Shown here: piece after piece, positions 814 to 22,739 of the stretch | Layout of the letters: each line of letters opens with the position of its first letter | Position numbering within the stretch: position 1 is the stretch's first letter | Assembly: GCA_036782775.1 (NCBI GenBank) | Contig: DAIPYJ010000001.1 | Span: 115,404-179,403, forward strand | DNA from: Candidatus Dormiibacterota bacterium | GTDB lineage: Bacteria; Chloroflexota; Dormibacteria; CF-121 | Reading direction: 5' to 3' | Length of the DNA: 64,000 nucleotides | Position numbers and translations under genes: made by a program | The notes under the pieces: model-generated | What the model was told of the DNA's origin: nothing | Databases searched by the model: none | The model's input: the letters and a program-made list of their open reading frames with translations, nothing else

Positions 814-1974
814 TCATGCCTGCGCGAGGGCCTGGTCAAGGTCTGAGATCAGATCGGCTGCGTCTTCCAGGCCAACGGAGATCCGGATCAGCCCATCCGC
901 CACCCCATGCGCCTTCCGGGTGTCGGCGGGAATCGAGGCATGCGTCATCAGCGCCGGCAGCTCGATCAGGGACTCGACACCGCCCAGGCTCTCCGCCAGC
1001 GTGAACAGCTGAGTCCGCTCGACGACCCGCCGCGCCGCCTCCAGATCGCCTTTGACTTCGAACGAGATCATGCCGCCGAAGCCGGACATCTGCCGCTTCG
1101 CCAGTTCGCTTTGTGGATGGTCGGGTAGTCCCGGGTAGAACACGCGAGCGACCCGGGCGTGCTTCGCCAGGAAGTCCGCTACCTGGCCTGCATTCCGATC
1201 GTGCTCCCGCATTCGAACCGCAAGCGTCTTCAGCCCCCGGAGAACGAGCCAGGCATCCATCGGCCCCGGCACGCCTCCGACGGCGTTTTGCAGGAAGCCC
1301 AGCCGCTCGGATAGATCGTCTCGATTGAGAACCACCGTACCGCCGATGAGGTCGCTGTGGCCGCCGAGATATTTGGTTGCGCTGTGCACGACGATGTCGG
1401 CGCCGAGCGCCAGCGGCCGCTGAAAGTAGGGGCTCATGAAGGTGTTGTCGACGACGACGAGCGCCTGCCGGCGGTGGGCGAGCTGGGCCACGGCCTGAAT
1501 GTCGACCAGCTTGAGGAGCGGGTTGGTCGGCGATTCGATCCAGACCATGCGGGTCCGCTCGCCGATCGCCCGCTCGATCGCGCTGAGCTCGCTGCCATCG
1601 ACAAACGAAAAGGACAATCCCATCGGCTCCAGCACGCGGCGAAACAGCCGGTAGGTGCCGCCGTAGAGATCATCCATCGCCACCGTGTGGTCGCCCGGCG
1701 AAAGCAGTTGCATGACGGCGGATTCCGCCGCCATGCCTGAGGCGAAGGCAAGCCCATGCGCCCCGCCCTCGAGCGCCGCGATGCAGGTCTCGAGGGCGGC
1801 CCGAGTCGGGTTGCCGGTTCGCGCGTACTCATAGCCTCGATGCTTGCCGATGGCTTCCTGGGCGAAGGTCGAGGTCTGGTAAATCGGGACGGTCACCGCG
1901 CCGGTCGATGGATCGGGCTCCTGGCCGGCGTGAATCGCCCGCGTCGAGAAGCCCGGGCTCGCGGATTCCGTCAA
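814..1974 (-). CDS. cystathionine gamma-synthase / gamma-lyase (PLP-dependent Cys/Met metabolism enzyme)
   Basis: 386 aa with N-terminus MTESASPGFSTRAIHAGQ... and a PLP-lysine region (HSATKYLGGHSD), typical of the MetB/MetC/CGL family. Confidence 0.85.
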   Translation of the reverse strand: MTESASPGFSTRAIHAGQEPDPSTGAVTVPIYQTSTFAQEAIGKHRGYEYARTGNPTRAALETCIAALEGGAHGLAFASGMAAESAVMQLLSPGDHTVAMDDLYGGTYRLFRRVLEPMGLSFSFVDGSELSAIERAIGERTRMVWIESPTNPLLKLVDIQAVAQLAHRRQALVVVDNTFMSPYFQRPLALGADIVVHSATKYLGGHSDLIGGTVVLNRDDLSERLGFLQNAVGGVPGPMDAWLVLRGLKTLAVRMREHDRNAGQVADFLAKHARVARVFYPGLPDHPQSELAKRQMSGFGGMISFEVKGDLEAARRVVERTQLFTLAESLGGVESLIELPALMTHASIPADTRKAHGVADGLIRISVGLEDAADLISDLDQALAQA

Positions 1975-3347
1975 CGCGCGGCCCGGGTACGAGTCATGAA
2001 CTCGAGCAGGTCGAGTCGCGTGATGATGCCGACCGGCTGCTCTCGTTCGATGACCACCAGCGCCGTTGCGCCGCCGAGCAGGGCATTGAACGCCTCGTCA
2101 ATGTGCGCACCGGCCGTGATCGTGGGGAACGGCCCGTCCATCGCCGCGCCCACCGTCGTGTCGATCAACCCGGGGTCGCGGTAGACGCGATCGAGCAGCG
2201 TCCGTTCCTGGATGCTGCCCACGAGCTTCCTGCCAGGACCGGCGCCGTCTTCGGTGACCGGCATCTGCGAGATGCCGTACTCCTGCAGCAAATCGATCGC
2301 CTTTCCAACCGTCTCCTTCGAGGAGACGGTGATCAACTCGGGAATCTCGCGATGCGGGGTCACCACGACGTCCTGAACGCGCTGCAGGGGAAAGCGCTCG
2401 AGGAAGCCGTTCTGCCGCATCCATTCGTCGTTGTAGATCTTGCCCATGTTGTTGCGACCGGTGTCCGGGAGGATGACGACGATCAGTCTTCCGGGCTCCA
2501 TCTCCTTGGCGATCTGGAGCGCCGCGTACATCGCGGTCCCGGCCGAGCCGCCGACCAGGATTCCCTCTTCGCGCGTGATCCGCCGAGCCGTAAGGAACGA
2601 GTCGCGATCCCCGACCTGGATGATCCGGTCGAACAGCTTCAGGTCGATCGTGCCGGGAATGAAGTCTTCGCCGATGCCCTCGACCTTGTAGGGCTTGACC
2701 GTGTCGCCCGAATAGAGCGAGCCTTCGGGGTCGGCGCCGACCAGCATCACGCCCGGCTTCTTCTCTCGGAGGAACCGGCCCGCGCCGGTCATCGTGCCGC
2801 CAGTACCCAGGCCACCGACGAGCGCGTCGATCTCGCCACCGGTTTGCTCCCAGAGTTCGGGGCCGGTGGTCTCGTAATGCGCCTGGGGATTCATTGGATT
2901 GAAATACTGGTTGGGCTGAAAGGCGCCCGGAATCTCTTTGCTCAACCGCTCGGCAACCGAGTAGTAACTCTCAGGCGAATCGCGCGGAACCGCCGTCGGG
3001 CAGACGACGACCTCTGCCCCATAGGCCCGCAGCAGTGCGATTTTTTCCGGGGATTGCTTGTCCGCCATGACGAAGATCATCCGGTAGCCCTTGAGCGCGG
3101 CAGCGATGGCGAGCGCGTGGCCGGTGTTGCCAGAGGTGGGCTCGACGATGGTCCCGCCCGGTCGCAAGAAACCGCGACGTTCGGCATCCTCGATCATCTT
3201 CAGGCCGATCCGGTCTTTCACGCTTCCGCCGGGATTCATGGTCTCGACCTTGGCCAAGATGGTCGGCTTCAAACCTATGGTGATTCGATGCAGCCGCACC
3301 AGCGGCGTGTGCCCCACGGCCTCCAGGATGTTGCCCAGGACCTGCAC
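1971..3347 (-). CDS. cystathionine beta-synthase (cysteine-synthase fold plus a C-terminal CBS domain pair)
   Basis: 458 aa. The N-terminal region is cysteine-synthase-like (GNTPLVRL, GGSVKDRIG, TSGNTG) and the C-terminal ~120 aa form a CBS pair. It overlaps the downstream gamma-lyase gene by 4 nt, as in the reverse transsulfuration pathway. Confidence 0.85.
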   Translation of the reverse strand: MQVLGNILEAVGHTPLVRLHRITIGLKPTILAKVETMNPGGSVKDRIGLKMIEDAERRGFLRPGGTIVEPTSGNTGHALAIAAALKGYRMIFVMADKQSPEKIALLRAYGAEVVVCPTAVPRDSPESYYSVAERLSKEIPGAFQPNQYFNPMNPQAHYETTGPELWEQTGGEIDALVGGLGTGGTMTGAGRFLREKKPGVMLVGADPEGSLYSGDTVKPYKVEGIGEDFIPGTIDLKLFDRIIQVGDRDSFLTARRITREEGILVGGSAGTAMYAALQIAKEMEPGRLIVVILPDTGRNNMGKIYNDEWMRQNGFLERFPLQRVQDVVVTPHREIPELITVSSKETVGKAIDLLQEYGISQMPVTEDGAGPGRKLVGSIQERTLLDRVYRDPGLIDTTVGAAMDGPFPTITAGAHIDEAFNALLGGATALVVIEREQPVGIITRLDLLEFMTRTRAAR

Positions 3348-3403
3348 TGCGGCCCCATTCTATGCGTAGAATCGGCACCAGTTCAGGAGGAGGGACGGGA
3401 CCC

Positions 3404-3922
3404 GTGCCGGTATCGGTTGCCAACTCTCAGGTGGTCTACGACGCCATGAAAGGCGTCGGGGTGCGGATGGTTAGCGCCCTACCCGAGACCTGGCTGGTTC
3501 ACCTGATCCGGTTTGCCGATGAGGATCCAAACATGACGCTGGTCCGTCTCGCCAAAGAAGAGGAGGGCGTCGGGGTGTCAGCCGGGGCGCACCTTGCCGG
3601 CGTCAAGTCGGCAATGCTGATGCAGAACCACGGGTTTCTGCAGTCGATCAATGGCATCAACGGCGTCTCGCTGCTCTACAAGATTCCGCTGCTGATGCTG
3701 ATCACCGACCGCGGGGGCTTCGGCGAGAAGGATCCATGGCAGACGGAAGGCGGAAAGTACACGCGTCCCATCCTGGACGCCTTGCACATCGCGCACGACG
3801 ACCTGACCAAACCGGACGACGTCGAACCGAAAATGGCCAAGGCGATGGCGCTGGCGCAGAGCTCGCTCTCGCCGGTCGCCTTGCTGCTCGGCCGCGACCT
3901 GATGTGGGAGGAGCCGCAGTGA
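3404..3922 (+). CDS. TPP-dependent decarboxylase alpha subunit (sulfopyruvate / phosphonopyruvate decarboxylase ComD-like, N-terminal pyrimidine-binding half)
   Basis: AGGAGG SD then GTG at 3404. The product VANSQVVYDAMKGVGVRMVSALPETW... resembles ComD / the PPD N-terminal domain. Its stop overlaps the next gene's GTG. Confidence 0.6.
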   Translation: MPVSVANSQVVYDAMKGVGVRMVSALPETWLVHLIRFADEDPNMTLVRLAKEEEGVGVSAGAHLAGVKSAMLMQNHGFLQSINGINGVSLLYKIPLLMLITDRGGFGEKDPWQTEGGKYTRPILDALHIAHDDLTKPDDVEPKMAKAMALAQSSLSPVALLLGRDLMWEEPQ

Positions 3923-4587
3923 AGCGTCTCGATTGCCTGAAGGCGATCTACCCGGAGCTGGAGGATTGTGCCGTCGTCACCATCATGGGCGCGGTCGCCG
4001 CCGAGCTGTACTCGCTCGGGCACCGCGCCAACTTCTTCTATCTCGAGCACGCGATGGGCCTCGCCTCGTCGATCGGCCTGGGCATCGCCCTGGCCCAACC
4101 TGAGCGCAAGGTCGTCGTGATCGACGGCGACGGGTCGGTCCTGATGAACCTTGGCGGGCTCACCACCCTCGCCCGCTCCCGACCGAGCAACCTGGTTCAC
4201 CTGATCTTCGACAACGAGACGCTCCTTTCCGTGGGTGGCGGTGCTCCAGGCGGCTATCGCTGGTTCACGACGGCAACCGCCGCGGGCACCGACCTGGCCG
4301 GCATCGCGAAAGCGGCCGGGTTTCCACGGGCGCAGAGCGTCAACGAGCTCGACGATTTCGAGGAGGCCGCGCTCGATGCCATCAACGGCGACGAGCTGAG
4401 CTGCGTCGTGGCCAAGGTGGAGGCGGAGATGCCGAAGAGCTTTCTGATGGACGTGCACATGCTCGAGAATCGATTCGAATTTCCGCGCGCCTTACAGCAA
4501 CCGCCACGCCGCAAGGACGAGCGTGCAAGCCGGCCTGCGAAGGAACAACCCGCGGCCATTCCGGCGCTGAAGTCAAGGGAGGAATGA
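3920..4587 (+). CDS. TPP-dependent decarboxylase beta subunit (ComE-like, TPP diphosphate-binding half)
   Basis: GTG at 3920 overlaps the alpha-subunit stop (GTGA). It carries a GDGS...N TPP-binding motif (VVVIDGDGSVLMNLGG). The track ORF 3736..4587 has an Arg-rich spurious N-terminal extension. Confidence 0.6.
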
Positions 4588-4588
4588 A

Positions 4589-5374
4589 TTGAGCACGAAA
4601 ATCGATACCCTCGCCGCGTTTGTCGAGAGCCTGGTCTCCGGTTCGATTGACGTCGTCGACCTGACCCAGCCATTGTCCGAGCGCACGCCCATGATCCAGC
4701 TGCCGCCGCCTTTCGCCAACACGCCGAACTGGAAGACGCACCTGATCAGCCAGTACGACGACAAAGGCCCAGCCTGGTACTGGAATTGGTTCGAGGGCGG
4801 CGAGCATGCCGGCACCCACTTCGACGCGCCCATTCACTGGGTTACGGGCAAAGACAAGGACGACGTCTCGCAGGTGCCGGTGCGGCGATTGATCGGACCG
4901 GCGATCCTGATCGACAAGTCGAAGGAAGCGGAGGCCAATCCCGATTTCCTGCTGACGCTGAACGACATCCGAGCCTTCGAGCGGGAGCACGGCTCGCTCC
5001 CCGAGGGCAGCTGGCTCCTTTACCGGACCGGCTGGGACGCGCGCGCCAACGACCAGAAGGCGTTCCTCAACGCCAATGAAACCGGTCCGCACACGCCCGG
5101 CATTGACATCGAGCTGGCGAAGTGGCTGGCGAATGAGAGTCCGTTTGTCGGGGTCGGGGTCGAGACGGTCGGGACCGACGCCGGCGCGGCGCATTCCTTC
5201 AACCCACCTTTCCCCTGCCATCAATTCCTCCTTGGAGCCAACAAATACGGCCTCACCCAGCTCGCCAACCTCTTGAAGCTTCCGCCGACCGGCGCCGTGC
5301 TCGTCGTCGCCCCGCTGAAGCTGGTCAAAGGATCGGGAAGCCCCTGCAGAGCGTTGGCGCTCGTCCAGCGATAG
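4589..5374 (+). CDS. kynB: cyclase-family protein, probable kynurenine formamidase
   Basis: Strong SD (AAGGGAGGAA) then TTG at 4589. It carries the HxGTHxDxPxH motif (EHAGTHFDAPIHW) of the PF04199 cyclase / KynB family. kynU and kynA lie nearby. Confidence 0.65.
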   Translation: MSTKIDTLAAFVESLVSGSIDVVDLTQPLSERTPMIQLPPPFANTPNWKTHLISQYDDKGPAWYWNWFEGGEHAGTHFDAPIHWVTGKDKDDVSQVPVRRLIGPAILIDKSKEAEANPDFLLTLNDIRAFEREHGSLPEGSWLLYRTGWDARANDQKAFLNANETGPHTPGIDIELAKWLANESPFVGVGVETVGTDAGAAHSFNPPFPCHQFLLGANKYGLTQLANLLKLPPTGAVLVVAPLKLVKGSGSPCRALALVQR

Positions 5375-5376
5375 AG

Positions 5377-6606
5377 CTGCCCGCCGGCCTCGAGCTGCGC
5401 GCGATCCGGCCGGAGGAGCACCGCGCCTACGCCGCGTCGCTGCGCCGTACCTTTGGCGGACCGGCGCCGACGGACGAGGAGCTGGCGGTCAGCCGCGAGA
5501 TCACCGAGTTCGACCGGACGCTCGCCGTCTTCGAAGACCGTGAGATCGTCGCGACCGCAGGCATCTTTTCGTATCAGATGACGGTTCCCGGCGGGACCGC
5601 AGCCTGTGGTGGCGTGACGCGGGTCACCGTTATGCCGACCCATCGCCGGCGCGGATTGTTGACGGCGATGATGCGGCAACAGCTCGAGGACATGCACGAG
5701 CGGGAAGAGCCGCTCGCCGCGCTTTACGCGTCGGAGGCGCCGATCTACGGCCGCTTCGGTTACGGCCTGGCGACGTATCAGGCAGAAATGGAGGTCACGC
5801 GCTCACGGGCGGAGTTCGCCGGTCAATCCAGCTCGGAAGGCCAGGTAAAAATGATCGACGTTCCGGCCGCGGTCTCGGCCTTCGCGCGTGTCTGGGAGCG
5901 CGTCCTCCCAACGCAGCCTGGCATGCTCCGCCTCGATGAGCACTGGTGGCGGAATATGCTTCGAGATCCAGAAAGCCAGCGGCACGGCTTCAGCGCGGAC
6001 TACCGCGTCGTTTACGAGAGCGGCGGCGCGCCAACGGGATTTGCGCTCTATCGCGTGAAGCTTGACTGGGACTCGATGGGACCGACTGGCGTCCTGAAGC
6101 TCGAATTGCTGATGGCGGTCGACGCTGACGCCTACCGTGCGCTCTGGCACTACCTGCTCGGCGTCGACCTGATGGTGAAAGTGATTGCCGAGCAGCGGAG
6201 AGTGGATGAACCACTGCGATTCCTGCTCGCGGATTCGCGCCAGCCGAAGATCATCATCCAGGACGGAATCTGGCTGCGCCTGGTTGATGTTGCTCGCGCG
6301 CTTGCCGCCCGCCGCTATGCCATCGACGGCAGGCTCGTCCTCGAGGTCCACGACCAGCTCTGCCCCTGGAACGAGGGCCGCTTCGAAATCGATGGCGGGC
6401 AGTCCGCCGCGACCTGCCGGCGTTGCGACCTGGAGCCGGATCTGGAGATGACGGTCGCCGATCTTGGCGCCGTCTACCTGGCCGGCAATCGTTTTCGCGC
6501 CTTGCATGAGGCCGGCCGGGTGATCGAGCGCCGTCCCGGGGCGCTGGCCCGCGCCGACCTGATGTTCGCCTCTGACCGCGTCCCCTGGTGCCCCAGCCAC
6601 TTCTAA
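5377..6606 (+). CDS. Eis-like GNAT N-acetyltransferase (GNAT domain plus sterol-carrier-like C-terminal domain)
   Basis: The open frame gives IELPAGLELRAIRPEEH...VTRVTVMPTHRRRGLLTAMM (GNAT acetyl-CoA motif). No ATG/GTG/TTG occurs in frame before the ATG at 5578, which lies after the N-terminal GNAT elements, so the start is uncertain (a CTG at 5377 is assumed). Confidence 0.55.
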   Translation: MPAGLELRAIRPEEHRAYAASLRRTFGGPAPTDEELAVSREITEFDRTLAVFEDREIVATAGIFSYQMTVPGGTAACGGVTRVTVMPTHRRRGLLTAMMRQQLEDMHEREEPLAALYASEAPIYGRFGYGLATYQAEMEVTRSRAEFAGQSSSEGQVKMIDVPAAVSAFARVWERVLPTQPGMLRLDEHWWRNMLRDPESQRHGFSADYRVVYESGGAPTGFALYRVKLDWDSMGPTGVLKLELLMAVDADAYRALWHYLLGVDLMVKVIAEQRRVDEPLRFLLADSRQPKIIIQDGIWLRLVDVARALAARRYAIDGRLVLEVHDQLCPWNEGRFEIDGGQSAATCRRCDLEPDLEMTVADLGAVYLAGNRFRALHEAGRVIERRPGALARADLMFASDRVPWCPSHF

Positions 6607-6624
6607 GCCGTCCATAATCCCCTC

Positions 6625-7857
6625 GTGGATCGCGAGACCTGCCAGTCCTTCGACGGACAGGACCCGCTGGCACATTTCCGCGACGAGTTCTCTCTTCCCG
6701 ACGGTGTCATCTATCTCGACGGGAATTCGCTGGGCGCCCTGCCGCGCGCGACCGTCGCTCGGCTGAACCAGGTTGCCGTCGAGGAGTGGGGTAGCGGACT
6801 CATCCGTAGCTGGAATGCGGCCGATTGGATTCACGCGCCACGCCGGATCGGCGACAAAATTGCCCGCCTGATCGGCGCCCACGCCGGCGAGGTCATCGTC
6901 GCCGACAGCACGTCTGTGAACCTCTTCAAGCTGCTCGCTGGCGCCTTGCGGCTGCAGCCGGAACGCCATTTCGTCCTCACCGAAAGCGGCAACTTTCCCA
7001 CCGACCTGTACGTCGCCCAGGGACTCATTGAGATGCTTGGTGGTAACCATGCGCTTCGCGTCGTGCCTCGCCATCAGCTCGCCGGCGCGATTGACGGCAG
7101 CGTTGCCATCGTCATGCTCACCCACGTCGACTACGCCACCGGGGAAATCCACGACATGCGCCGCCTCACCGAGGCAGCGCACCGATACGGCTCGCTCATG
7201 CTGTGGGACCTGTCGCATAGCGCTGGAGCGCTTCCGCTCGATCTGAACCGCAACCAGGTCGATCTCGCCATCGGCTGTGGCTACAAGTACCTGAATGGCG
7301 GCCCGGGGGCCCCGGCGTATGTCTTCGTCGCGAACCGGCTCCAGGAGCAGCTTGCCAACCCGATCTCCGGCTGGATGGGACACGCCTCCCCCTTCGCATT
7401 CGCGGCGGAGTACGAGCCCGCGCCGGGCATCGCGCGCCAGCTTGCCGGGACGCCACCCGTGCTGAGCCTGATGGCGCTCGAGGTCGCGGTGGACATGTGG
7501 CTGCGCGTCGATCAGCAGGAGGCTCGTCGCAAGTCGATGGCGCTCGGCGACCTTTTTATCCGCCTGGTTGAGGAGACCTGCCGCGACCTCGGCCTCGAGG
7601 TGGCATCACCTCGGGAGGCAGCCCAGCGCGGCTCGCAGGTCTCGCTTCGCCACCAAGAGGCCTACCGCGTTATGCGCGCGTTGATCGACCGCGCGGTGAT
7701 CGGCGATTTCCGGACGCCGGACCTGATGCGTTTTGGTTTCGCCTCGCTCTACACCCGCTACGTCGACGTTTACGATGCCGTGCGCTGCCTCCGGGAAGTG
7801 CTGGCGACGCGCGCCTGGCAGCGCCCTGAGTACGCGACTCGCCTCATCGTCACCTGA
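6625..7857 (+). CDS. kynU: kynureninase (PLP-dependent)
   Basis: 410 aa from a GTG start. It carries the IYLDGNSLG motif and aligns in my reading with bacterial kynureninases along its whole length. Confidence 0.85.
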   Translation: MDRETCQSFDGQDPLAHFRDEFSLPDGVIYLDGNSLGALPRATVARLNQVAVEEWGSGLIRSWNAADWIHAPRRIGDKIARLIGAHAGEVIVADSTSVNLFKLLAGALRLQPERHFVLTESGNFPTDLYVAQGLIEMLGGNHALRVVPRHQLAGAIDGSVAIVMLTHVDYATGEIHDMRRLTEAAHRYGSLMLWDLSHSAGALPLDLNRNQVDLAIGCGYKYLNGGPGAPAYVFVANRLQEQLANPISGWMGHASPFAFAAEYEPAPGIARQLAGTPPVLSLMALEVAVDMWLRVDQQEARRKSMALGDLFIRLVEETCRDLGLEVASPREAAQRGSQVSLRHQEAYRVMRALIDRAVIGDFRTPDLMRFGFASLYTRYVDVYDAVRCLREVLATRAWQRPEYATRLIVT

Positions 7858-8309
7858 TGGATCGGCAGCCGGGCGATCGCCTCCTTCGCGGCTACCTGAG
7901 CAGCCGGCTCGTCCTGCTGATCATCGGCATCATCACGCCAATCGGCATCCTGGTTGTCAACGCGGCCGCGTTTGTCTACAAGAACCTGGCGCAATTCCGA
8001 ATCGGCATCGCCGCCTGTGCGCTGATCAGCTCGCTGGTCCTCAACGGGTTGACCGCATCCTGGTTACTTCGGCTGGCTGGTCGGCGATCGATGTCGCTCT
8101 ACCTAGAGCACCGCGACTGGGCAACGATCGTGGCAACCATCATCGTGATCGCCACCTCGGTCGGCGCCGCGATATTCACCTACATCGGCATGAGCAACCC
8201 AAACCGATTACCCGATGGGCTCGCCGTGCTGACTGCGCTGCTCGCCCTCTTCGTACCGCTCGGCATCACTTACGTCAGCCGGTTCTTCGCGAACCCGAAC
8301 ACCTCGTAG
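7857..8309 (+). CDS. integral membrane protein, hypothetical (4 predicted TM helices)
   Basis: Its ATG overlaps the kynU stop (ATGA). The product is hydrophobic and 150 aa. Confidence 0.5.
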   Translation: MDRQPGDRLLRGYLSSRLVLLIIGIITPIGILVVNAAAFVYKNLAQFRIGIAACALISSLVLNGLTASWLLRLAGRRSMSLYLEHRDWATIVATIIVIATSVGAAIFTYIGMSNPNRLPDGLAVLTALLALFVPLGITYVSRFFANPNTS

Positions 8310-8313
8310 CCGG

Positions 8314-9108
8314 CTATAGCTGGGAGCGGACCTGCCAGAGCTCCGGGAAAAAGCGCTTGTTGAGCGTCGACTGCAGATACTTGACGCCGGTCGATCCGCC
8401 GGTCCCTGCCTTGTCGCCAATCTGCCGTTCGACCATCTCGACGTGCCGTATGCGCCAGATGCGGAATCCCTCGTCGTGGTCGAGGAGCGCCTCGGCGAGG
8501 TCGAGGACGTCTGCATGGCTCGAGCCGTCACGGTAGAGGTCGGCGACCGTCAGCCCGCGCCGCGCCAGAAGCCCTGCGAAGGCATCCGCGAGTGAGGGCT
8601 CGGCGAGTCGCTGCTCCAACCGGAGACGAGCGCCCGGCTCGCCCTCGAGCGCCTTCAAGTAGCCGCGGTCCTTCAGTCCCGAGAGATACTCGACCTCGCG
8701 GAACTGGACCGATTGAAAGCCGCTAGCTGGGGCGAGCTCGGAACGAAACGTCAGAAAGTCCTGCGGCGCCATCGTCTCGAGCACGGCAACCTGCTCGACC
8801 ATGAGCGCCTCGATGACCTTGATGCGCCCGAGGTAGTGGCGCGCGGTCCGCAGTGCGTCACGCTGGATGGCATCCCGCGTCGCCTCCAGCTCATGGATCA
8901 GGACCTTGAACCAGAGCTCGTATGCCTGGTGGACGATGATGAAGAGCAGCTCGTCGTGCGCGTCGGTAAGGCCCTGTTGTAACTCGAGCAGTTCTGGAAT
9001 CCGTAAGTAGGAGCCGTAGCTGAGGCGCCGGCCGCTGGCATCGTCGTAGCCCATCCCGCCGAGGCGGTACGGCCTGGGCTTCTCATCGGGCTGTTGCGCC
9101 GTGGCCAA
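8314..9108 (-). CDS. kynA: tryptophan 2,3-dioxygenase
   Basis: 264 aa carrying LSYGSYL and FIIVHQAYELWFK, both characteristic TDO motifs. Confidence 0.85.
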   Translation of the reverse strand: MATAQQPDEKPRPYRLGGMGYDDASGRRLSYGSYLRIPELLELQQGLTDAHDELLFIIVHQAYELWFKVLIHELEATRDAIQRDALRTARHYLGRIKVIEALMVEQVAVLETMAPQDFLTFRSELAPASGFQSVQFREVEYLSGLKDRGYLKALEGEPGARLRLEQRLAEPSLADAFAGLLARRGLTVADLYRDGSSHADVLDLAEALLDHDEGFRIWRIRHVEMVERQIGDKAGTGGSTGVKYLQSTLNKRFFPELWQVRSQL

Positions 9109-9168
9109 GCTGCGACCAGCTTACCCCCGAACGTGCTACAACGAGGTCGTTCACAAGGAGGGGACAAC

Positions 9169-10533
9169 GTGAAGGAATCGCCCTACTGGAATCCCCGGCA
9201 CGAGACGATGCCGCGTGACCAGATCGAGGCACTGCAGCTGCGCAAGCTCAAGAACCTGCTGGCCTGGACGGAAGCAAAGGTGCCCTGGCAGGGGGAGCGC
9301 CTGCGGAAGGCCGGGGTCACGGCCGGCTCGATCAAGAGCCTGAAGGACTTGCGTCGCATCCCGATGATGACCAGGGACGAATGGATGCAGGCGCAGCTTG
9401 AGAAGCCGCCTTACGGGCCGCTGCTGGCCGCGCCGGAGGAGGTCGCCATCCGTTATCACCTGACCTCAGGAACGACGGGCCGTATTCCACTCCAGGTCCT
9501 GGACTCGATGAAGGACTGGGAATGGATCGCCGAGATGTGGTGCTATGGCTTCTGGGGTTTTGGCGTGCGGCCGGCCGATATCGTCTTCTTCGCCTTCAGT
9601 TACGGCACCTTCGTCGGCTTCTGGGGCGCGCACTATGCCAGTGAGAAGATCGGCTGCCTGGTATTGCCCGGCGGGAACATGACGACCGAAGCGCGCGTCA
9701 AGCAGATCATGACGATGAAGGCGACCGTCGTCTGCTCGACGCCGACCTACGCCTTGCGCATGGCACAGGAGGCGAAGACGATGGGCGTCGACCTCGCCAA
9801 GGGACCGGTCCAGCGCCTGATTCTTTCCGGCGAACCCGCCGGCTCGATTCCCGCCACCAAGCGGCTGATCGAGGAAGAATGGGGCGCGAAGGCCGCGGAC
9901 ACCGCCGGCATGACCGAGGTTGGCACCATCATGATCTTCGAGTGCGCCAAGCAGCCGGGAGGCACCCACATCATCGAGGACCACTACATCGAAGAAGTCG
10001 TCGATCCGGAGAACGGCGAGCCGGTGGGATACGGCGAGCTGGGCGAGCGGCTCATCACCTCCTTTGGGCGCGGCTTCATCCCGGTGCTGCGCTACCGCAC
10101 GCGCGACATGGTGGTCCGGGTCCCGGCCAACACCTGCACCTGCGGCCGCACCTTTGACCTCTACGAGGGTGGGATTCGAGGCCGCGTCGACGACATGAAG
10201 CTGGTGCGCGGCACGAACGTCTACCCGCGTGCGGTGGAGTCGATCGTCCGCGAGTTCAAGCAGATCGACGAATTTCGCATCCACCTCTTCACCGCGGATG
10301 GCCGCCAGGATGAGATCGAGGTGCTGGTCGAGATCCCCGCGAAGGAGGGCGGTGAAGCCGAACGGATCTGCGCCGCCCTGGCCAAGGAGCTCGCCCAGGC
10401 GCACGAAGGTCTCCGTTTTGGCGTCAAGAAGGTCGAGAACGGCAGCCTGCCGCGCTTCGAGCTCAAAGCCAAGCGGCTGCAGGACGATCGGATCGTGATC
10501 GGAACCGCCGGCGAGCGCAGGGTGACGGCATGA
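9169..10533 (+). CDS. phenylacetate-CoA ligase family (PaaK / F390 synthetase-like) adenylate-forming CoA ligase
   Basis: AAGGAGG SD then GTG at 9169. The product has PaaK-family features (TSGTTG, YGxTE...) and is about 454 aa. The first 25 codons of the track ORF are an upstream extension. Confidence 0.75.
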   Translation: MKESPYWNPRHETMPRDQIEALQLRKLKNLLAWTEAKVPWQGERLRKAGVTAGSIKSLKDLRRIPMMTRDEWMQAQLEKPPYGPLLAAPEEVAIRYHLTSGTTGRIPLQVLDSMKDWEWIAEMWCYGFWGFGVRPADIVFFAFSYGTFVGFWGAHYASEKIGCLVLPGGNMTTEARVKQIMTMKATVVCSTPTYALRMAQEAKTMGVDLAKGPVQRLILSGEPAGSIPATKRLIEEEWGAKAADTAGMTEVGTIMIFECAKQPGGTHIIEDHYIEEVVDPENGEPVGYGELGERLITSFGRGFIPVLRYRTRDMVVRVPANTCTCGRTFDLYEGGIRGRVDDMKLVRGTNVYPRAVESIVREFKQIDEFRIHLFTADGRQDEIEVLVEIPAKEGGEAERICAALAKELAQAHEGLRFGVKKVENGSLPRFELKAKRLQDDRIVIGTAGERRVTA

Positions 10534-11974: not shown

Positions 11975-12856
11975 ATGGCGATGGAGGTGCTACTGCCCCG
12001 CTCTCTCGATGAGGCGCTGGCGATCAAGGCGGAACACCCGGAGGCCCTGCCGATTGCGGGTGGCACCGATGTGATGGTCGACATCAACTTCGGCCGGTTG
12101 CGACCTCCGGCACTAATGGACGTGAGTCGAGTGCCGGACCTCTCGACCGTCAAGCAAGAGAACAGCCATGTCTTTCTCGGATCGGGGGTCACCTATAACG
12201 CGATCGTCACCGGAATGACCGCTTTTCAGCCACTCGTACAGGCCTCCCGCTCGGTGGGCTCGCCGCAGATCCGCAATCGCGGCACGGTCGGCGGCAACGT
12301 CGGGACCGCCTCGCCGGCCGGCGATGCCCTTCCAGTGCTGGCTGCCTACGACGCCGAGATCATCGTGCGCAACCGCAGCGCCGAGCGCTCGCTGCCCTGG
12401 GACAGGTTCTTCGTCGGTCCCAAAAAGACCGCGCTGAAGCCGGACGAATTGATCCTTGGCGTCCGTTGGGCGCGGCGCCGCGGACCGGGAACGTTCTCGA
12501 AGATCGGTACGCGCAACGCCATGGTGATCGCGGTCGCCGGCCTCTGTCTGGTCATGGACGAAGACGCCCGCCGGGTGAAGGTCGCCCTCGGCTCTGTCGG
12601 GCCGACCATCATCCGCGCGGTCGAGGCAGAAAATCAGATCTCGGCCGCAATGGAGAGCGCCGGCGCGTGGAGGGACGTCTCGATCGGCCTGGCAGACGAT
12701 GTGATCGACGAATTCTCGAGGCTGGTGGCGTCCGCCGCCCGGCCCTTCGACGATGTTCGGGGGACCGCCGCCTACCGGCGACACGCCTGCTCCGTCCTGG
12801 CCCGACGAGCGCTGCGCTGGGCGATCAAGGATCGGGCGAGGCCGGCATGGTTGTAA
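11975..12856 (+). CDS. xanthine dehydrogenase family FAD-binding subunit (CoxM/XdhB-like)
   Basis: N-terminus MAMEVLLPRSLDEALAIKAEHPEALPIAGGTDVMV is the CO dehydrogenase flavoprotein / FAD-binding PCMH fold. Confidence 0.85.
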   Translation: MAMEVLLPRSLDEALAIKAEHPEALPIAGGTDVMVDINFGRLRPPALMDVSRVPDLSTVKQENSHVFLGSGVTYNAIVTGMTAFQPLVQASRSVGSPQIRNRGTVGGNVGTASPAGDALPVLAAYDAEIIVRNRSAERSLPWDRFFVGPKKTALKPDELILGVRWARRRGPGTFSKIGTRNAMVIAVAGLCLVMDEDARRVKVALGSVGPTIIRAVEAENQISAAMESAGAWRDVSIGLADDVIDEFSRLVASAARPFDDVRGTAAYRRHACSVLARRALRWAIKDRARPAWL

Positions 12857-13317
12857 GGACACGCGTCAACGGCGAGTGGCGGGAGGCCGACGTCTGGCCC
12901 GGGAGCAGCTTGCTCACCATGCTCCGGGACGGCATGGGACTGTATGGCTCGAAGAACGCCTGCGAGCAAGGAGAGTGCGGCTCGTGCTCGGTCTGGCTCG
13001 ACGGCGCGCTCGTCTGCAGCTGTTTGGTGCTGGCGGGACAGGCGCACGAGCGCGAGGTGCGAACCGTCGAGTCGCTCGACGACGGAAGCAGACTCGGCCT
13101 CGTCCAGCAGGCGTTCATCGATGCCGGAGGTGTGCAATGCGGCTTCTGCACGCCCGGGTTCATCGTCGCCGTTTCGGACCTGCTGCAACGCGATCCGAAT
13201 CCCAGCCAGGCAACCGTCCGCGAGGCGCTCAGCGGCAACCTTTGCCGCTGTACCGGCTATCAGAAAATCCTCGACGCCGTCAGCCTCGCGGCCAGCCGGA
13301 TGGAAACGCCCGCATGA
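12847..13317 (+). CDS. xanthine dehydrogenase family (2Fe-2S)-binding subunit (CoxS-like)
   Basis: Starts MVVRTRVNGEW... It has two Fe-S cysteine clusters (CEQGECGSCSV and CGFCTPGF...CRCTGY). The true start is the ATG at 12847, not the track's 12466. Confidence 0.85.
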   Translation: MVVRTRVNGEWREADVWPGSSLLTMLRDGMGLYGSKNACEQGECGSCSVWLDGALVCSCLVLAGQAHEREVRTVESLDDGSRLGLVQQAFIDAGGVQCGFCTPGFIVAVSDLLQRDPNPSQATVREALSGNLCRCTGYQKILDAVSLAASRMETPA

Positions 13318-14627
13318 TCCTGATCGACGGATGCCGCGTGGTTGCCACCATGGACGACGCCGGCACCGAGCTCGACAATGCCTCGATCCTCATCGACGGT
13401 GGCGTGATCCGCTGGGTCGGGCGGGGCAGGCCGCCGGTGAACGAGCCGCCCGATGTCCTGGATGGCGAGGGGCTGGTCGCGATCCCTGGCCTGGTGAACA
13501 CCCACCACCACCTCTATCAGACGCTAACGCGCGTGCATGCGCAGCAGGGGACGCTCTTCGAGTGGCTGGGCGAGCTCTATCCGATCTGGGCGACGATCGA
13601 CAGCGACTGGGAGCGGACCGCGGCCGAGATCGGTCTGGCCGAGCTGGCCTTGAGCGGCTGTTCGACCACCACCGATCACCATTATGTTTTTCCGTCTGGC
13701 GTGACGGGTCTACTGGAGACCGAGATCGAAGTCGCCGAGCAGGTCGGTTTGCGCTTTCATCCCTGCCGCGGCTCGATGGACCTGGGCGAATCGAAGGGCG
13801 GCCTCCCACCGGACCGCGTCGTCGAGGATCTCGACCGCGTCCTGAGTGCGACCGATGAGGCAATCGATCGCTTTCATGACGCAAAACCGGGCTCGATGCT
13901 GCGGATCGCCGTCGGTCCTTGCTCACCGTTTTCGGTGACGCCAGAACTCATGCGTGAGTCGGTGTCGCTCGCACGCCGGCGCGGCGTAGGCCTGCATACG
14001 CACATCGCCGAGACCCTCGACGAGGAAGGGTTTTGCCAGCAGAAATTCGGCAAGCGGCCGGTCCAATTGCTGGAGGACCTGGGATTCCTCGGTGATGACG
14101 TCTGGCTGGCGCACTGCGTTCACGTCGGCGCGGAAGATATCGCCGCGCTCGCCAGGTCGCACACCGGCGTGGCCTGGTGCCCAACCTCGAATCTGCGGCT
14201 CGGTTCTGGCTTTGCCCCGGCGCGCGAGCTGCTCGACGCGGGTGTTCGAGTCGGACTCGCCGTCGATGGATCCGCTTCCAATGACAGCGGCAACCTGCTC
14301 GCCGAAGCGCGCCAGGGCCTGCTGGTCACGCGCGGCCGCAAAGGGCCAGCGTCAATGACCGCGCGCGAGGCCCTACGGATCGCCACCCGCGGAGGCGCTG
14401 AGGTCCTCGGTCGAGATGACATTGGCTCGTTGCAAGCCGGTATGCGCGCCGACATCGCGCTCTTCGCCGTCGACGGCCTCGCCTACCGCGGCGCCGAGAG
14501 CGATCCGCTCGCATCGCTCATCTTTTGCAACCCCGGTCCCGTCCAGCATCTCTTCGTCGAGGGCAAGCCGGTGGTGCACGACGGCCACCTCGTGAATGTG
14601 AGCGAGGGGAGCCTGATCTGGGCATGA
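13314..14627 (+). CDS. amidohydrolase, guanine / 8-oxoguanine deaminase-like (TRZ/ATZ chlorohydrolase subfamily)
   Basis: ATGA overlap with the Fe-S subunit. The metal-binding motif GLVNTHHHLYQTL and HTHIAET place it in the deaminase subfamily. Its position inside the XDH operon fits purine catabolism. Confidence 0.7.
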   Translation: MILIDGCRVVATMDDAGTELDNASILIDGGVIRWVGRGRPPVNEPPDVLDGEGLVAIPGLVNTHHHLYQTLTRVHAQQGTLFEWLGELYPIWATIDSDWERTAAEIGLAELALSGCSTTTDHHYVFPSGVTGLLETEIEVAEQVGLRFHPCRGSMDLGESKGGLPPDRVVEDLDRVLSATDEAIDRFHDAKPGSMLRIAVGPCSPFSVTPELMRESVSLARRRGVGLHTHIAETLDEEGFCQQKFGKRPVQLLEDLGFLGDDVWLAHCVHVGAEDIAALARSHTGVAWCPTSNLRLGSGFAPARELLDAGVRVGLAVDGSASNDSGNLLAEARQGLLVTRGRKGPASMTAREALRIATRGGAEVLGRDDIGSLQAGMRADIALFAVDGLAYRGAESDPLASLIFCNPGPVQHLFVEGKPVVHDGHLVNVSEGSLIWA

Positions 14628-16819
14628 GCGTCCAAATTCGGCGGAAAGGCGGCGTCGGGCAATCGGTACCCCGCGTGGACGGCGTCCCCAAAGTCAAGGG
14701 CGAGTTCGAATACGCGAGCGACCTGCACCGCGATGACATGCTCTATGGCGCAACCCTGCGCAGCCCACATCCGCACGCCCGCATCCTCTCGCTGGATATC
14801 ACCCCTGCGTCCGAGATGCCGGGCGTACACGCGGTGCTGACCCATGAGGACGTGCCAGGCAAGAAGACCTTCGGGCTCGACGTCCAGGACCAGCCGGTGC
14901 TGGCGATTGACACCGTCCGTTATGCCGGCGAACCGGTCGCGATCGTCGCCGCCGAGGATCCCGAGCTGGCTCGCCAGGCGGCAAAGGCGATCAAGGTTCA
15001 GTACGAGGTTCTGCCGCCGGTCACGGACACGGAAGAGGCGCTCAAGAGCGACGCGCCCAAGGTGCATCCGCAAGGGAACGTGGTGCGGACCCTGCAGATC
15101 GTGCACGGCGACCCGAGTGCCCGGGCCGATGTGTGGGTCGAAGGTGTCTATGAGACGGGCATGCAGGACCAGGCCCCACTTGGTCCCGAAGCCGGGCTCG
15201 CCGCGCCGGCGGAGGACGGCGGCGTCGACCTCTATATCGCGACCCAGTGGCTGCACGCCGACCTCGAGCAGCTGGCACCCTGCCTCGCGATGCCGCCAGA
15301 AAAGGTCCGGCTCCACCTGTCAGGGGTTGGCGGCGCGTTTGGAGCACGTGAAGACGTCAGCATGCAGATCCACGCCTGCCTGCTCGCGCTGCGCACGAGG
15401 CGGCCGGTTCGCATGAGCTATGGAAGGCAGGAATCGTTTTTCGGTCACGTCCACCGCCATCCCTCGCGGATCTGGATGCGCCATGGTGCCCTTAAGGACG
15501 GGACGCTGGTCAACGTCCAGGCGCGGCTGCTCATCGATGGTGGCGCCTACACCTCGACCTCGCCGGCGGTGATCGGCAACGCGACAACCTTCGCCGCCGG
15601 GCCCTATGAAGTTCCGAACGCGCGGCTCTCCGGCACCGCCCTCTTCACCAACAATCCGCCCTGCGGCGCGATGCGCGGCTTCGGCGCCGTCCAGGCGTGC
15701 TTTGCCTATGAGGCGCAGATGGACAAGCTGGCCGCGGCGCTCAACCTCGATTCGCTAGAGCTCCGGATGAAGAACGCCTTGCATACGGGCTCGGTGTTTC
15801 CCACCGGCCAGCGGCTGGAGGGTGCAGCCCCGGTCCGCGAGTGCCTGCAGCGCCTGCGTGACATCCCGCTGCCGCCGGATGAATCGCCTCTCGACCGCGA
15901 TCCGATGCTGCTGCCGGGCGGTGCCGGCAATGTCGGTCACGGCGAGGACCTGGCCCGCGGCGTCGGCATCGCCGTCGGCTACAAAAACCTCGCCTACAGC
16001 GAGGGCTTCGACGACAGCTCGGAGGCATGGGTCCGCGTTTGGCCGGACCGGGACGGCCGTGGGGCGACGGCTGAGGTCAAGACGGCCGCGGTCGAGGTCG
16101 GACAGGGACTGGACACGATCGTGACTCAGATCGTCCAGACGGAGCTTGGCATCGAGCGCGTCCAGCTGTGTCAACCGGACACCATGATCGGCTCGGCCGG
16201 GTCGAGCTCCGCGTCGCGGCAGACGATGATGACGGGTGGCGCGGTGCAGCTCGCCTGCCAGGCGGTGCGCGAGGAGATTGACCAGCAGGGCGGAATCGGG
16301 CAGCTGAGACGTCCGGTGGAAGCGACGAGGGTGTTTCGGCATCGCGCGACCGGCAAGTTGGATGCCAACGGCCAGGGCAGTCCGCACGTGAGCTTCGCCT
16401 TCGGCGCCGCGCGGGCCGTGGTCGAGGTCGACCGTGCGCTCGGCCTGGTGCGCGTGGTTCAGCTCGCTGTGGCGCAAGACGTGGGACGGGCGATCAATCC
16501 GCAAAGTGTCACGGGCCAGATCGAGGGCGGAAGCGCGCAGGGCCTGGGCCTCGCGCTCATGGAAGAGGTGGCGCTGGTCGACGGCCAGGTAAAGAACGCC
16601 TCGTTTACGGACTACCTGATCCCGACGATTCTCGACATGCCGCCGGTCGTATCGGAACTGGTCGAAGAACCGGAGCCCGGCCTTCCCTACGGTGCCAAGG
16701 GCGTCGGCGAGCCATCGACCGTGGTGGTGCCCGCCGCGGTCGTCGCCGCCTTGCGTCATGCGACCGGGCGCGAGCTGCCGCGCGCGCCCGTCAAGCCGGA
16801 CGACCTGGTGGGTCTGTGA
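14624..16819 (+). CDS. xanthine dehydrogenase family molybdopterin-binding large subunit
   Basis: 731 aa from an ATG that overlaps the upstream stop. It contains GGAFGAR and GxGEP (YGAKGVGEP) signatures of the aldehyde oxidase / XDH Moco domain. Confidence 0.85.
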   Translation: MSVQIRRKGGVGQSVPRVDGVPKVKGEFEYASDLHRDDMLYGATLRSPHPHARILSLDITPASEMPGVHAVLTHEDVPGKKTFGLDVQDQPVLAIDTVRYAGEPVAIVAAEDPELARQAAKAIKVQYEVLPPVTDTEEALKSDAPKVHPQGNVVRTLQIVHGDPSARADVWVEGVYETGMQDQAPLGPEAGLAAPAEDGGVDLYIATQWLHADLEQLAPCLAMPPEKVRLHLSGVGGAFGAREDVSMQIHACLLALRTRRPVRMSYGRQESFFGHVHRHPSRIWMRHGALKDGTLVNVQARLLIDGGAYTSTSPAVIGNATTFAAGPYEVPNARLSGTALFTNNPPCGAMRGFGAVQACFAYEAQMDKLAAALNLDSLELRMKNALHTGSVFPTGQRLEGAAPVRECLQRLRDIPLPPDESPLDRDPMLLPGGAGNVGHGEDLARGVGIAVGYKNLAYSEGFDDSSEAWVRVWPDRDGRGATAEVKTAAVEVGQGLDTIVTQIVQTELGIERVQLCQPDTMIGSAGSSSASRQTMMTGGAVQLACQAVREEIDQQGGIGQLRRPVEATRVFRHRATGKLDANGQGSPHVSFAFGAARAVVEVDRALGLVRVVQLAVAQDVGRAINPQSVTGQIEGGSAQGLGLALMEEVALVDGQVKNASFTDYLIPTILDMPPVVSELVEEPEPGLPYGAKGVGEPSTVVVPAAVVAALRHATGRELPRAPVKPDDLVGL

Positions 16820-17124
16820 GCGAACTCGCGACCGTGTCGACGCACGTGCTGGACGTCGCCAGCGGCCGGCCCGCCGCGGGCGTTCGCGTCACGCTCGGAA
16901 CCCGAACGCTGACGACCGACGACAACGGGCGGATCGCCGACCTGAGCGGTGGTGGCATCAATCCCGGGACCTACCGAATGCTCTTCGAGGTTGGGACCTA
17001 TTTCGCGAACAGCGCCCATCTTTTTGAAACGGTCACCTTCGAGTTGAAACTGGCAGAGGGCCGCCATTACCACGTGCCGCTCTTGATCTCGCCCTTCTCG
17101 TGCTCGAGCTACCGCGGCACGTGA
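16816..17124 (+). CDS. 5-hydroxyisourate hydrolase (transthyretin-like)
   Basis: GTGA overlap with the upstream gene. It is 102 aa with an N-terminal STHVLD motif and a C-terminal YRGT (the canonical HIUase tetrapeptide is YRGS). Confidence 0.85.
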   Translation: MSELATVSTHVLDVASGRPAAGVRVTLGTRTLTTDDNGRIADLSGGGINPGTYRMLFEVGTYFANSAHLFETVTFELKLAEGRHYHVPLLISPFSCSSYRGT

Positions 17125-17540
17125 TCTCGATCGAAGAGGCGCTCGAAGGGTCGACGCCGCTTGCGGTAAAAGTCCGCGCGCTCGGCCCGTTTGAATCCGG
17201 CAAGGCATTGATCGAGACCATGCGCGAGGTTGCGGGAACCCTGAGCGATCCCGAGAAGGTGGCTACCCTGAACGCCCATCCCCGAATCGGCGAGCGGGTC
17301 TCGCAGATGTCAGCCCGGTCGCGCAGCGAGCAGGGCGACGAGTCGGCGCCTGAGTTGGATGAGCTCAATGCCGACTACGAGCGGCGCTTCGGCTTTCGTT
17401 TCGTAACCTTCGTCAACCGGCGTCCCAAGTCGGCGATCGTGCCCGAGCTTCGCGAACGGCTCACGCGCTCGCGGCAGGAGGAACTCAACGCCGGACTGCG
17501 AGCCGTGATCGACATCGCCGAGGACCGGCTGCGCCGATGA
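17121..17540 (+). CDS. OHCU decarboxylase (2-oxo-4-hydroxy-4-carboxy-5-ureidoimidazoline decarboxylase)
   Basis: Carries NAHPRIG and RFGFRFV motifs. A GTG at 17121 overlaps the HIUase stop (GTGA). An ATG at 17100 is the alternative start. Confidence 0.8.
   Translation: MISIEEALEGSTPLAVKVRALGPFESGKALIETMREVAGTLSDPEKVATLNAHPRIGERVSQMSARSRSEQGDESAPELDELNADYERRFGFRFVTFVNRRPKSAIVPELRERLTRSRQEELNAGLRAVIDIAEDRLRR

Positions 17541-18356: not shown

Positions 18357-18364
<8 letters not shown>
17537..18364 (+). CDS. factor-independent urate oxidase (uricase)
   Basis: ATGA overlap with the upstream gene. N-terminus QYGKHNVSFYRTH is followed by a tunnelling-fold repeat, about 275 aa. It sits in the HIUase/OHCU context. 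Confidence 0.75.
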
Positions 18365-21866
<3,502 letters not shown>

Positions 21867-22710: not shown

Positions 22711-22739
22711 GCGCTCGTCGGGATGATAAGTTTTTGCCG

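Follow-up and report, generated by a model that had tools for sequence, protein, structure and literature searches.

Sulfopyruvate decarboxylase (ComD/ComE), the split phosphonopyruvate decarboxylase RhiEF and LumK/LumL of riboflavin catabolism belong to a small family of heteromeric decarboxylases dependent on thiamine diphosphate (ThDP). A gene pair of this design is described here at positions 3404-4587 of a 64,000-nucleotide stretch of DNA from Candidatus Dormiibacterota bacterium (contig DAIPYJ010000001.1; the whole analysed stretch is called the window), together with the gene at 4589-5374 that follows it, which codes for a homologue of isatin hydrolase. ComD/ComE shares with the window pair the two-subunit design of an aminopyrimidine-binding (PYR) and a diphosphate-binding (PP) half; in both, the genes overlap and the activating Glu and GDG...DN motif are found. 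Phosphonopyruvate decarboxylase occurs as the fused AepY/Ppd and as the split RhiEF (PDB 9IZ3/9IZ4), which has the same heteromeric design (PMC12141560). LumK/LumL is described as a heteromeric split ThDP decarboxylase for an aromatic carboxylate resembling an alpha-keto acid, formed by hydrolytic ring opening (PMC12746152); it differs in its quinoxaline carboxylate substrate and in its pathway, as the paper's description shows. Benzoylformate decarboxylase (BFD; MdlC, EC 4.1.1.7) carries out the chemistry that is proposed below, in which an aryl-glyoxylate is decarboxylated non-oxidatively on ThDP and an aryl aldehyde is formed, but it is a single chain of 528 amino acids (aa) that includes a middle domain, and the homology is remote (E ~1e-4).

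Isatin and isatinate have been known for decades as intermediates of the bacterial degradation of indole and indole-3-acetic acid. The conversion of isatin through isatic acid to anthranilate has been observed repeatedly, and its second step stands without an assigned enzyme in a 2018 review of indole (PMC6221969). In Variovorax iad strains, ions of C8H7NO3 and C7H7NO were found to build up before anthranilate; the authors of the 2025 preprint did not identify these ions and assigned no enzyme past isatin hydrolase (PMC12633357). The two formulae are those of isatinate and 2-aminobenzaldehyde. The signature features of isatin hydrolases, namely a metal motif, an aromatic hairpin and the sequence GLQC or GLAS, were defined together with the I(L/I)E motif of KynB (PMC6117287). 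No isatinate decarboxylase, and nothing that connects isatin with a ThDP enzyme, appeared in the literature searched, which covered few subscription-journal papers, so that a prior description is possible.

The split gene pair and its hydrolase partner

The three genes at 3404-5374 are, on balance, best read as a translationally coupled module for isatin catabolism, in which isatin would be opened to isatinate and the split ThDP enzyme would convert isatinate to 2-aminobenzaldehyde, feeding the anthranilate/2-aminobenzoyl-CoA genes. The first two genes encode, as judged from their sequence, an intact two-subunit ThDP enzyme. The reading frames of the alpha (PYR) and beta (PP) subunits share the four bases GTGA at 3919-3922, and the proposal of the preliminary description that they represent the two halves of one ThDP enzyme is borne out by frames, domain matches and cofactor motifs together. 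Beta matches Pfam PF02775 (TPP_enzyme_C) with 71.8 bits at a cut-off of 21.9, and alpha falls just under the cut-off of PF02776 (TPP_enzyme_N; 26.1 versus 26.8 bits, E 7.8e-6). Full-length alignments were obtained with the NCBIfam models for ComD (TIGR03845; alpha, 117.8 bits) and ComE (TIGR03846; beta, 129.2 bits), and the two halves of the NCBIfam Ppd model were aligned full-length by alpha and beta, respectively. The cofactor-activating Glu is alpha Glu52 (3557-3559), intact within KEEEG, which aligns with the sole conserved Glu of AepY, ComD and RhiE and is invariant in 80 family members. The diphosphate/Mg2+ motif GDG-X(25-30)-N(N/D) is intact in beta as well, with GDG at 4126-4134 and DN at 4210-4215 (motif stretch GDGSVLMNLGGLTTLARSRPSNLVHLIFDN), both invariant across 81 sequences. 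Family invariants in alpha are LPETWL, KEEEG, MQNHGF and the family-specific His76 (3629-3631), and those in beta are His35, His44 and DNExLLSVGG.

Each of the three start codons (3404, 3919 and 4589) is preceded by a Shine-Dalgarno-like box (AGGAGG, GGGAGGAG or AGGGAGGA). GTG 3404 is favoured as the alpha start over an upstream ATG at 3362 because the family consensus begins MPVSVANS at its N-terminus. A scan of 3000-9500 for promoters and terminators gave no signal above shuffled controls. The closest solved structures are RhiE for alpha (PDB 9iz3_A, E 6.5e-14) and RhiF for beta (9iz3_B, E 9e-20). The entries PDB 9U8Q/9U8R/9U8S (chains of 170 and 194 aa, deposited as 'TPP-binding domain-containing protein') are also matched, by alpha at E 6e-13 and by beta at E 1e-7; a paper describing them was not found in the literature searched. 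Within the Dormibacterota subclade, beta carries an 8-aa Gly/aromatic insert, GAPGGYRW (4240-4263), directly after the invariant DNExLLSVGG loop, and a basic, Pro-rich C-terminal tail of ~27 aa (4504-4584). Both are absent from the orthologues of Actinomycetota, Acidobacteriota and other groups.

The product of 4589-5374 is a homologue of isatin hydrolase (EC 3.5.2.20 type) and, by its strong homology, is predicted to open isatin. Full-length PDB matches were obtained with LaIHB (4J0N/4M8D, E 5.2e-83), the Ralstonia enzyme (5NMP, E 1.8e-79) and LaIHA (5NNA/5NNB, ~1e-72; 5NNB 1.4e-72). Its identity to the three assayed isatin hydrolases is 48-53%, and these three are 50-60% identical among themselves. 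The preliminary description had named this gene kynB, a name that has to be given up, since the KynB model TIGR03035 reaches 25 bits against a cut-off of 223.05 and aligns just a 48-residue stretch, whereas the isatin hydrolase structures are matched so closely; structures of the KynB type give weaker matches (1R61, E 2e-7; 8HMO, E 1e-4). The metal motif H73-x-G-T-H77-x-D79-x-P-x-H83-W84 (4805-4840) matches HxG[T/A]HxDxPxH. Its residues H73, G75, T76, H77, D79, P81 and H83 are invariant in 71 orthologues, as are the Asp-His relay D197/H211 and, in the aromatic pocket with its W63-Y64-W65 hairpin (4775-4783), W63, W65, W84 and F208. The third signature, published as GLQC or GLAS, reads GLTQ in the window protein (residues 221-224) and GL(A/T)(S/Q/G) among the 71 orthologues, with T in 39 and A in 32 at the third position, Q in 37, S in 21 and G in 13 at the fourth, and exact GLAS in 21. 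The I(L/I)E motif of KynB is absent at its position, which is occupied by GLTQ in the window protein, and in the comparison of these orthologues. The Mn ligands, Asp-His dyad and W-x-W pocket of the isatin hydrolases IH-A/IH-B are all kept in the window protein; the characterised enzymes, however, lie in iad-type auxin loci or beside IOR-type enzymes, and not beside a split ThDP enzyme.

When one genome was scanned for each GTDB species, at least 580 relatives came to light, of which the 80 best loci (55-92% identity) were analysed, making 81 places with the window. These 80 loci span at least six groups, namely Dormibacterota (the phylum to which the closest matches point for the window itself), Actinomycetota, Acidobacteriota (Sulfotelmatobacter, Acidobacteriaceae, Vicinamibacterales and Bryobacteraceae), Gemmatimonadota, Verrucomicrobiia and Chloroflexota. 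Alpha and beta are split and adjacent in every one of the 81 places, with an overlap of -4 or -1 nt in 70. The overlapping frames and the alpha score just under the Pfam gathering threshold could suggest a decaying or non-functional frameshifted gene, as the preliminary description had considered, but this is practically ruled out by the conserved split and overlap, the invariant cofactor motifs and the sheer number of family matches among GTDB species genomes at the identities given. Of the 78 places with enough downstream sequence (window included), 75 show the order alpha-beta-isatin hydrolase, with a median gap of -1 nt between beta and the hydrolase gene; six places have no hydrolase 3' of beta, and three of these are contig ends.

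All neighbours other than these three genes vary among the 80 loci. The genes for cystathionine beta-synthase and cystathionine gamma-lyase (CBS/CGL), the GNAT protein, kynureninase and tryptophan dioxygenase lie near the module only in close Dormibacterota loci, a PaaK-like ligase is near it in 26 loci, all from Dormibacterota or Actinomycetota, and the neighbours in one Vicinamibacterales locus are a Rieske oxygenase and an Amidohydro_2 protein. Because only the order of the three genes holds while the other neighbours vary, the stretch 3404-5374 is taken as the functional unit. The position of the pair between transsulfuration and kynurenine genes, to which the preliminary description had given weight, is an arrangement specific to Dormibacterota.

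In four Actinomycetota loci (L031, L035, L036 and L073), a TrpB-like pyridoxal phosphate (PLP) enzyme (NF009057, 694 bits) was seen divergently 5' of alpha on the opposite strand; this type of TrpB-like protein has a presumed role in indole salvage. Two apparent fusions of the beta N-terminus to isatin hydrolase fragments (P0141 and P0169), of the Rosetta-stone kind, are probably frameshift or gene-calling artefacts. Fusions within the ThDP enzyme were seen in metagenome proteins, in beta-alpha order in P0231 and in alpha-beta order in P0256, the latter from a more distant clade. No cultured carrier of the split family with isatin hydrolase was identified, and PLSDB held no orthologue above 60% identity. 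A plasmid match in Gemmatirosa kalamazoonensis (H29) belongs to a different subfamily and comes without isatin hydrolase, and an isatin hydrolase of Nonomuraea (63% identity) has no split ThDP neighbour.

Other ThDP enzymes beside isatin hydrolases

Eleven contexts of isatin hydrolase homologues were inspected in annotated replicons, and in six of them the hydrolase is paired with some ThDP-dependent 2-oxoacid enzyme. A full-length ThDP protein of 546-548 aa is encoded directly 3' of the hydrolase in Deinococcus psychrotolerans, Deinococcus sp. KNUC1210 and Rhodococcus erythropolis R138. The two of these three proteins that were searched match no NCBIfam model above its cut-off, and all three have a His in the column of BFD His70, in an approximate alignment with BFD. 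In Tsukamurella, Alloyangia and Sulfitobacter, genes of a 2-oxoacid oxidoreductase of the IOR-alpha/beta type adjoin the hydrolase gene, and the hydrolase from Sulfitobacter shares 89% identity with LaIHB, one of the assayed enzymes. Such pairing fits isatinate, since isatinate (2-aminophenylglyoxylate) is an aryl alpha-keto acid, the substrate type of all these enzymes. Ring-opening hydrolases and split ThDP decarboxylases may have been paired repeatedly. On a plasmid of Deinococcus taeanensis (L097, 4384-6321), another split ThDP subfamily (36-39% identity) is located between a PrpD-family protein and the lactam hydrolase PxpA, and the locus continues with genes for acyl-CoA dehydrogenase, CoA-transferase, MaoC and aldehyde dehydrogenase.

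The plasmid loci of the marine bacteria Roseibium, Labrenzia and Sagittula (L100, L101 and L102) are of the iad type, that of auxin degradation, and their genes run in the order Rieske dioxygenase, AMP-ligase, thiolase, short-chain dehydrogenase/reductase (SDR), hydrolase and SDR. IadI, called 'kynurenine formamidase' in the Variovorax preprint (PMC12633357), is probably an isatin hydrolase, because homologues occupy these three iad-type loci.

Proposed isatin route and competing explanations

The sole partner of the split ThDP enzyme that is conserved across phyla is an isatin hydrolase homologue, on which the substrate hypothesis is based, and since the hydrolase gene is almost always the next one downstream, the split enzyme appears most likely to be an isatinate decarboxylase. 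In the proposed mechanism, the Mn-type cyclic amidohydrolase of 4589-5374 would open isatin to isatinate. The ThDP ylide of the alpha/beta enzyme would then attack the alpha-keto group of isatinate with release of CO2, and protonation of the enamine would give 2-aminobenzaldehyde, so that alpha/beta would be the counterpart of BFD on the ComDE/RhiEF scaffold. The aldehyde would be oxidised to anthranilate by some further enzyme, anthranilate would be converted to its CoA ester, with the PaaK-like ligase as a candidate, and the ester would enter the 2-aminobenzoyl-CoA route. A second route in the Dormibacterota window, from tryptophan via dioxygenase and kynureninase, would converge on anthranilate. 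We infer isatinate decarboxylation from gene linkage and chemistry; which substrate is used, what is formed from it and whether carbon flows on to anthranilate are inferred as well. An enzyme built like ComDE/RhiEF and proposed to work like BFD would constitute a new functional variant within a known kind of enzyme. Alpha His76 falls in the loop of BFD His70, a catalytic residue of that enzyme, with an offset of one residue in an approximate alignment with BFD. Among the substrates that the preliminary description had considered was a 2-oxo acid derived from an aromatic amino acid; this points the right way, towards aromatic or indole metabolism.

The likeness to ComDE and Ppd claimed in the preliminary description holds for the two-subunit architecture, with RhiEF as the best solved relative, and fails for membership. 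Close beta homologues (80-92% identity) carry the JGI label 'sulfopyruvate decarboxylase subunit beta', the best NCBIfam matches are those for ComD, ComE and Ppd, beta is 42% identical to the PGAP-annotated ComE of Leisingera, and CBS and cystathionine lyase genes are adjacent, all of which could speak for a sulfopyruvate or phosphonopyruvate decarboxylase. This assignment is nevertheless very improbable, and simple membership is ruled out, since the model cut-offs, the place in the tree and the motifs all speak against it and pepM is missing nearby. Alpha, with its 117.8 bits, stays below the equivalog threshold of 147.95 for TIGR03845, beta, with 129.2, below that of 221.5 for TIGR03846, and both below the Ppd cut-off (TIGR03297, 312.5 against 68.3 for alpha and 123.4 for beta). 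Leisingera ComD is only 28% identical to alpha, and identity to RhiEF amounts to 30-35% for beta and 24-31% for alpha. A neighbour-joining tree of 166 beta sequences, without bootstrap, united the window beta with those of all related loci in one clade; ComE and AepY fall outside it, and Leisingera ComE groups elsewhere than the window beta and those of the 80 linked loci. A protein search against one representative per 50%-identity cluster of ~15 billion proteins gave only 71 proteins at E 1e-30, and beyond them other full-length split ThDP proteins followed at ~36-47% identity.

Furthermore, the motifs on the substrate side have been exchanged. Beta has GH-x-NFFYL-x-HAMG in place of the D(R/Q)-x-x-FYM-x-G(S/T)MG common to ComE, Ppd and RhiF, and DNE-x-LLSVGG in place of DNG-x-(Y/H)-x-STG, while alpha has LPETWL in place of VPC and MQNHGF in place of MQN(S/T)G. 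The genomic setting differs likewise from that of ComD/ComE, for the conserved partner is an isatin hydrolase homologue. Queries with PEP mutase (Mycetohabitans AepX) and the transaminase of 2-aminoethylphosphonate gave no tblastn match in the window or the 80 loci, so that no PEP mutase lies near any of the 81 places, and the neighbour of Leisingera comDE, an alpha-hydroxy acid oxidase, is missing as well. Genes for coenzyme M, sulfolactate or sulfoacetaldehyde metabolism were not seen among the conserved neighbours of the 80 loci or the annotated parts of the window, where Xsc, ComA, ComB and ComC had no dedicated queries. The preliminary description was right, then, that pepM is missing nearby and that a phosphonate or coenzyme M context is not seen, and the orthologues were not found embedded in such clusters. 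Sulfopyruvate derived from the breakdown of cysteine, which it suggested, is an unlikely substrate, since CBS/CGL are linked to the pair only in close Dormibacterota relatives (16 of the 80 loci), which rules out CBS and CGL as functional partners in a sulfur route.

Two further explanations keep the hydrolase and the ThDP enzyme together with other substrates. In one of them, which is unlikely though it deserves attention, the module has the same design but the hydrolase opens some other alpha-keto lactam or amide, for instance a substituted isatin such as 5-hydroxyisatin or a further cyclic 2-oxo-amide, and the split ThDP enzyme decarboxylates the resulting 2-oxo acid. The varying hydrolase signature (GLTQ and GLAG besides GLAS) would suit it, and so would the class-V-fold PLP enzymes and amino-acid transporters that adjoin the module in Acidobacteriota, Gemmatimonadota and Deinococcus and are left unexplained by an isatin route. 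It is also consistent with the other split ThDP subfamily beside the lactam hydrolase PxpA and with LumK/LumL, a split ThDP enzyme that follows hydrolytic ring opening (PMC12746152). Yet the isatin-pocket residues W63, W65, W84 and F208 and the catalytic residues are all invariant, and identity to the assayed isatin hydrolases lies inside the range that those enzymes show mutually. In the other, which is distinctly less probable and is limited to Dormibacterota, the hydrolase serves as N-formylkynurenine formamidase, the ThDP enzyme acts on a 2-oxo acid derived from tryptophan or kynurenine, such as indole-3-pyruvate, and the aldehyde is oxidised and passed to the PaaK-like ligase. Tryptophan dioxygenase and kynureninase are indeed adjacent in an operon without canonical kynB, the hydrolase lies directly beside the dioxygenase and PaaK-like ligase genes in two loci (L025 and L027), and JGI names homologues of the hydrolase 'kynurenine formamidase'. 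Against this stand the KynB score of 25 bits at a cut-off of 223 with the I(L/I)E motif missing, the retention of the trio in ~60 loci without tryptophan dioxygenase and kynureninase, and the lack of a conserved aminotransferase to supply the 2-oxo acid.

Several points weigh against isatinate as the substrate. The assignment is guilt by association, and all 80 orthologous loci come from metagenome-assembled genomes. In Dormibacterota, the hydrolase may also, or instead, act as N-formylkynurenine formamidase, because the dioxygenase and kynureninase are present there without canonical KynB. The window hydrolase has the variant GLTQ and not one of the published GLQC/GLAS forms, the match of His76 to BFD His70 is off by one residue in an approximate alignment, and the family tree is a neighbour-joining tree without bootstrap. 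No aldehyde dehydrogenase was found within ~8 kb of the module in the 80 loci, and the sole one of the window, at 60513-61916, lies 56 kb from it. No ThDP enzyme is encoded within 6 kb in the iad-type auxin loci of Roseibium, Labrenzia and Sagittula, which contain isatin hydrolase, and so the ThDP step is not universal. Lastly, the isatin model does not explain why class-V-fold PLP enzymes recur beside the module in unrelated phyla. Such cases are the kynureninase of the window; the TIGR01976 cysteine-desulfurase-like protein of Acidobacteriaceae/Sulfotelmatobacter (21 loci, L041-L086), which is encoded divergently together with another class-V protein and an APC permease; in a Gemmatimonadota locus, a class-V PLP enzyme accompanied by a cupin and an SNF transporter; and a class-V enzyme beside the isatin hydrolase and full-length ThDP protein of Deinococcus sp. 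KNUC1210.

In its broadest form, the isatin proposal would comprise a heteromeric ThDP isatinate decarboxylase, a widespread isatin-to-anthranilate route of soil bacteria (at least 580 GTDB matches; at least six phyla in the best 80) and the independent recruitment of three unrelated ThDP architectures for the same metabolite, and for this whole the chances appear even. The three architectures beside isatin hydrolase are the split ComDE-like, the full-length type resembling BFD and acetolactate synthase (ALS), and the IOR-like. If true, indole and auxin degradation would gain an enzyme for the step from isatinate to anthranilate, where the literature searched offered none. A new substrate class would join the small heteromeric ThDP decarboxylase family beside ComDE, RhiEF and LumKL, and two systematic misannotations of metagenome databases, 'sulfopyruvate decarboxylase' and 'kynurenine formamidase', would be corrected. 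Poorly cultured soil phyla (Dormibacterota, Acidobacteriota and Gemmatimonadota) would possess a dedicated route for an indole-derived signalling and toxic compound, and the enzyme might be used as a biocatalyst for ortho-amino aryl aldehydes.

Neighbouring genes of the window

The other neighbours listed in the preliminary description, CBS, cystathionine lyase, the Eis-like GNAT protein and kynU, were confirmed by domain or NCBIfam matches (see the table). The exact substrates of the dioxygenase homologue and of the PaaK-like ligase are uncertain because both score below curated cut-offs.

Coordinates of the three-gene module and of other features in the window
Feature	Position	Strand	Basis or remark
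Cys/Met PLP lyase (CGL of the CBS/CGL pair)	814-1974	-	domain match
CBS	1971-3347	-	TIGR01137, 540 bits (cut-off 510)
Alpha subunit, PYR half of the predicted split ThDP enzyme	3404-3922	+	GTG start, TGA stop, 172 aa
Beta subunit, PP half	3919-4587	+	GTG start, TGA stop, 222 aa
Isatin hydrolase homologue, Pfam Cyclase family	4589-5374	+	TTG start, 261 aa; begins 1 nt past the beta stop
Eis-like GNAT acetyltransferase with SCP2 domain	5380-6606	+	start codon uncertain; module neighbour only in Dormibacterota
Kynureninase (kynurenine to anthranilate and alanine)	6625-7857	+	TIGR01814, 309 bits (cut-off 246); module neighbour only in Dormibacterota
Tryptophan 2,3-dioxygenase family protein	8314-9108	-	PF03301; TIGR03036, 252 bits (below cut-off 390.7)
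PaaK-like aryl-acid CoA ligase, candidate anthranilate activator	9094-10533	+	PaaK models, 244-247 bits (cut-offs 646-700)
FAD monooxygenase-old yellow enzyme (OYE) reductase fusion	19755-21866	-	NF006101, 840 bits (cut-off 1078)
Enoyl-CoA hydratase	22734-23567	+	family match
Acyl-CoA dehydrogenase	24492-25613	-	family match
SDR	25610-26389	-	family match

Anthranoyl-CoA-type genes occur in the window and in several isatin hydrolase-ThDP clusters elsewhere. The FAD/OYE fusion has the architecture of 2-aminobenzoyl-CoA monooxygenase/reductase and of salicylyl-CoA 5-hydroxylase, and the same protein type adjoins isatin hydrolase in three other loci (L089, L091 and L095). The set of enoyl-CoA hydratase, acyl-CoA dehydrogenase and SDR also accompanies the isatin hydrolase and ThDP enzyme of Deinococcus psychrotolerans. 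In L025 and L027, the dioxygenase and PaaK-like ligase genes come directly after the isatin hydrolase gene, with no kynureninase. A 150-aa reading frame at 7857-8309 abuts the kynureninase gene without an intergenic gap; it is kept in Dormibacterota loci at 77-80% identity and has no Pfam or NCBIfam match.

The aromatic/anthranilate gene set is interrupted by a purine-catabolism block at 11975-19924, with xanthine-dehydrogenase FAD and Mo subunits, an amidohydrolase, uricase and adenosine deaminase. The xanthine-dehydrogenase-type Mo enzyme (11975-16819) was considered as an aldehyde oxidase and is probably unrelated, since it shares the purine block with the uricase and adenosine deaminase genes and is absent at that place from the related contig L001/L014. 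On this related contig, the genes for the PaaK-like ligase and the FAD/OYE fusion lie just ~2 kb apart.

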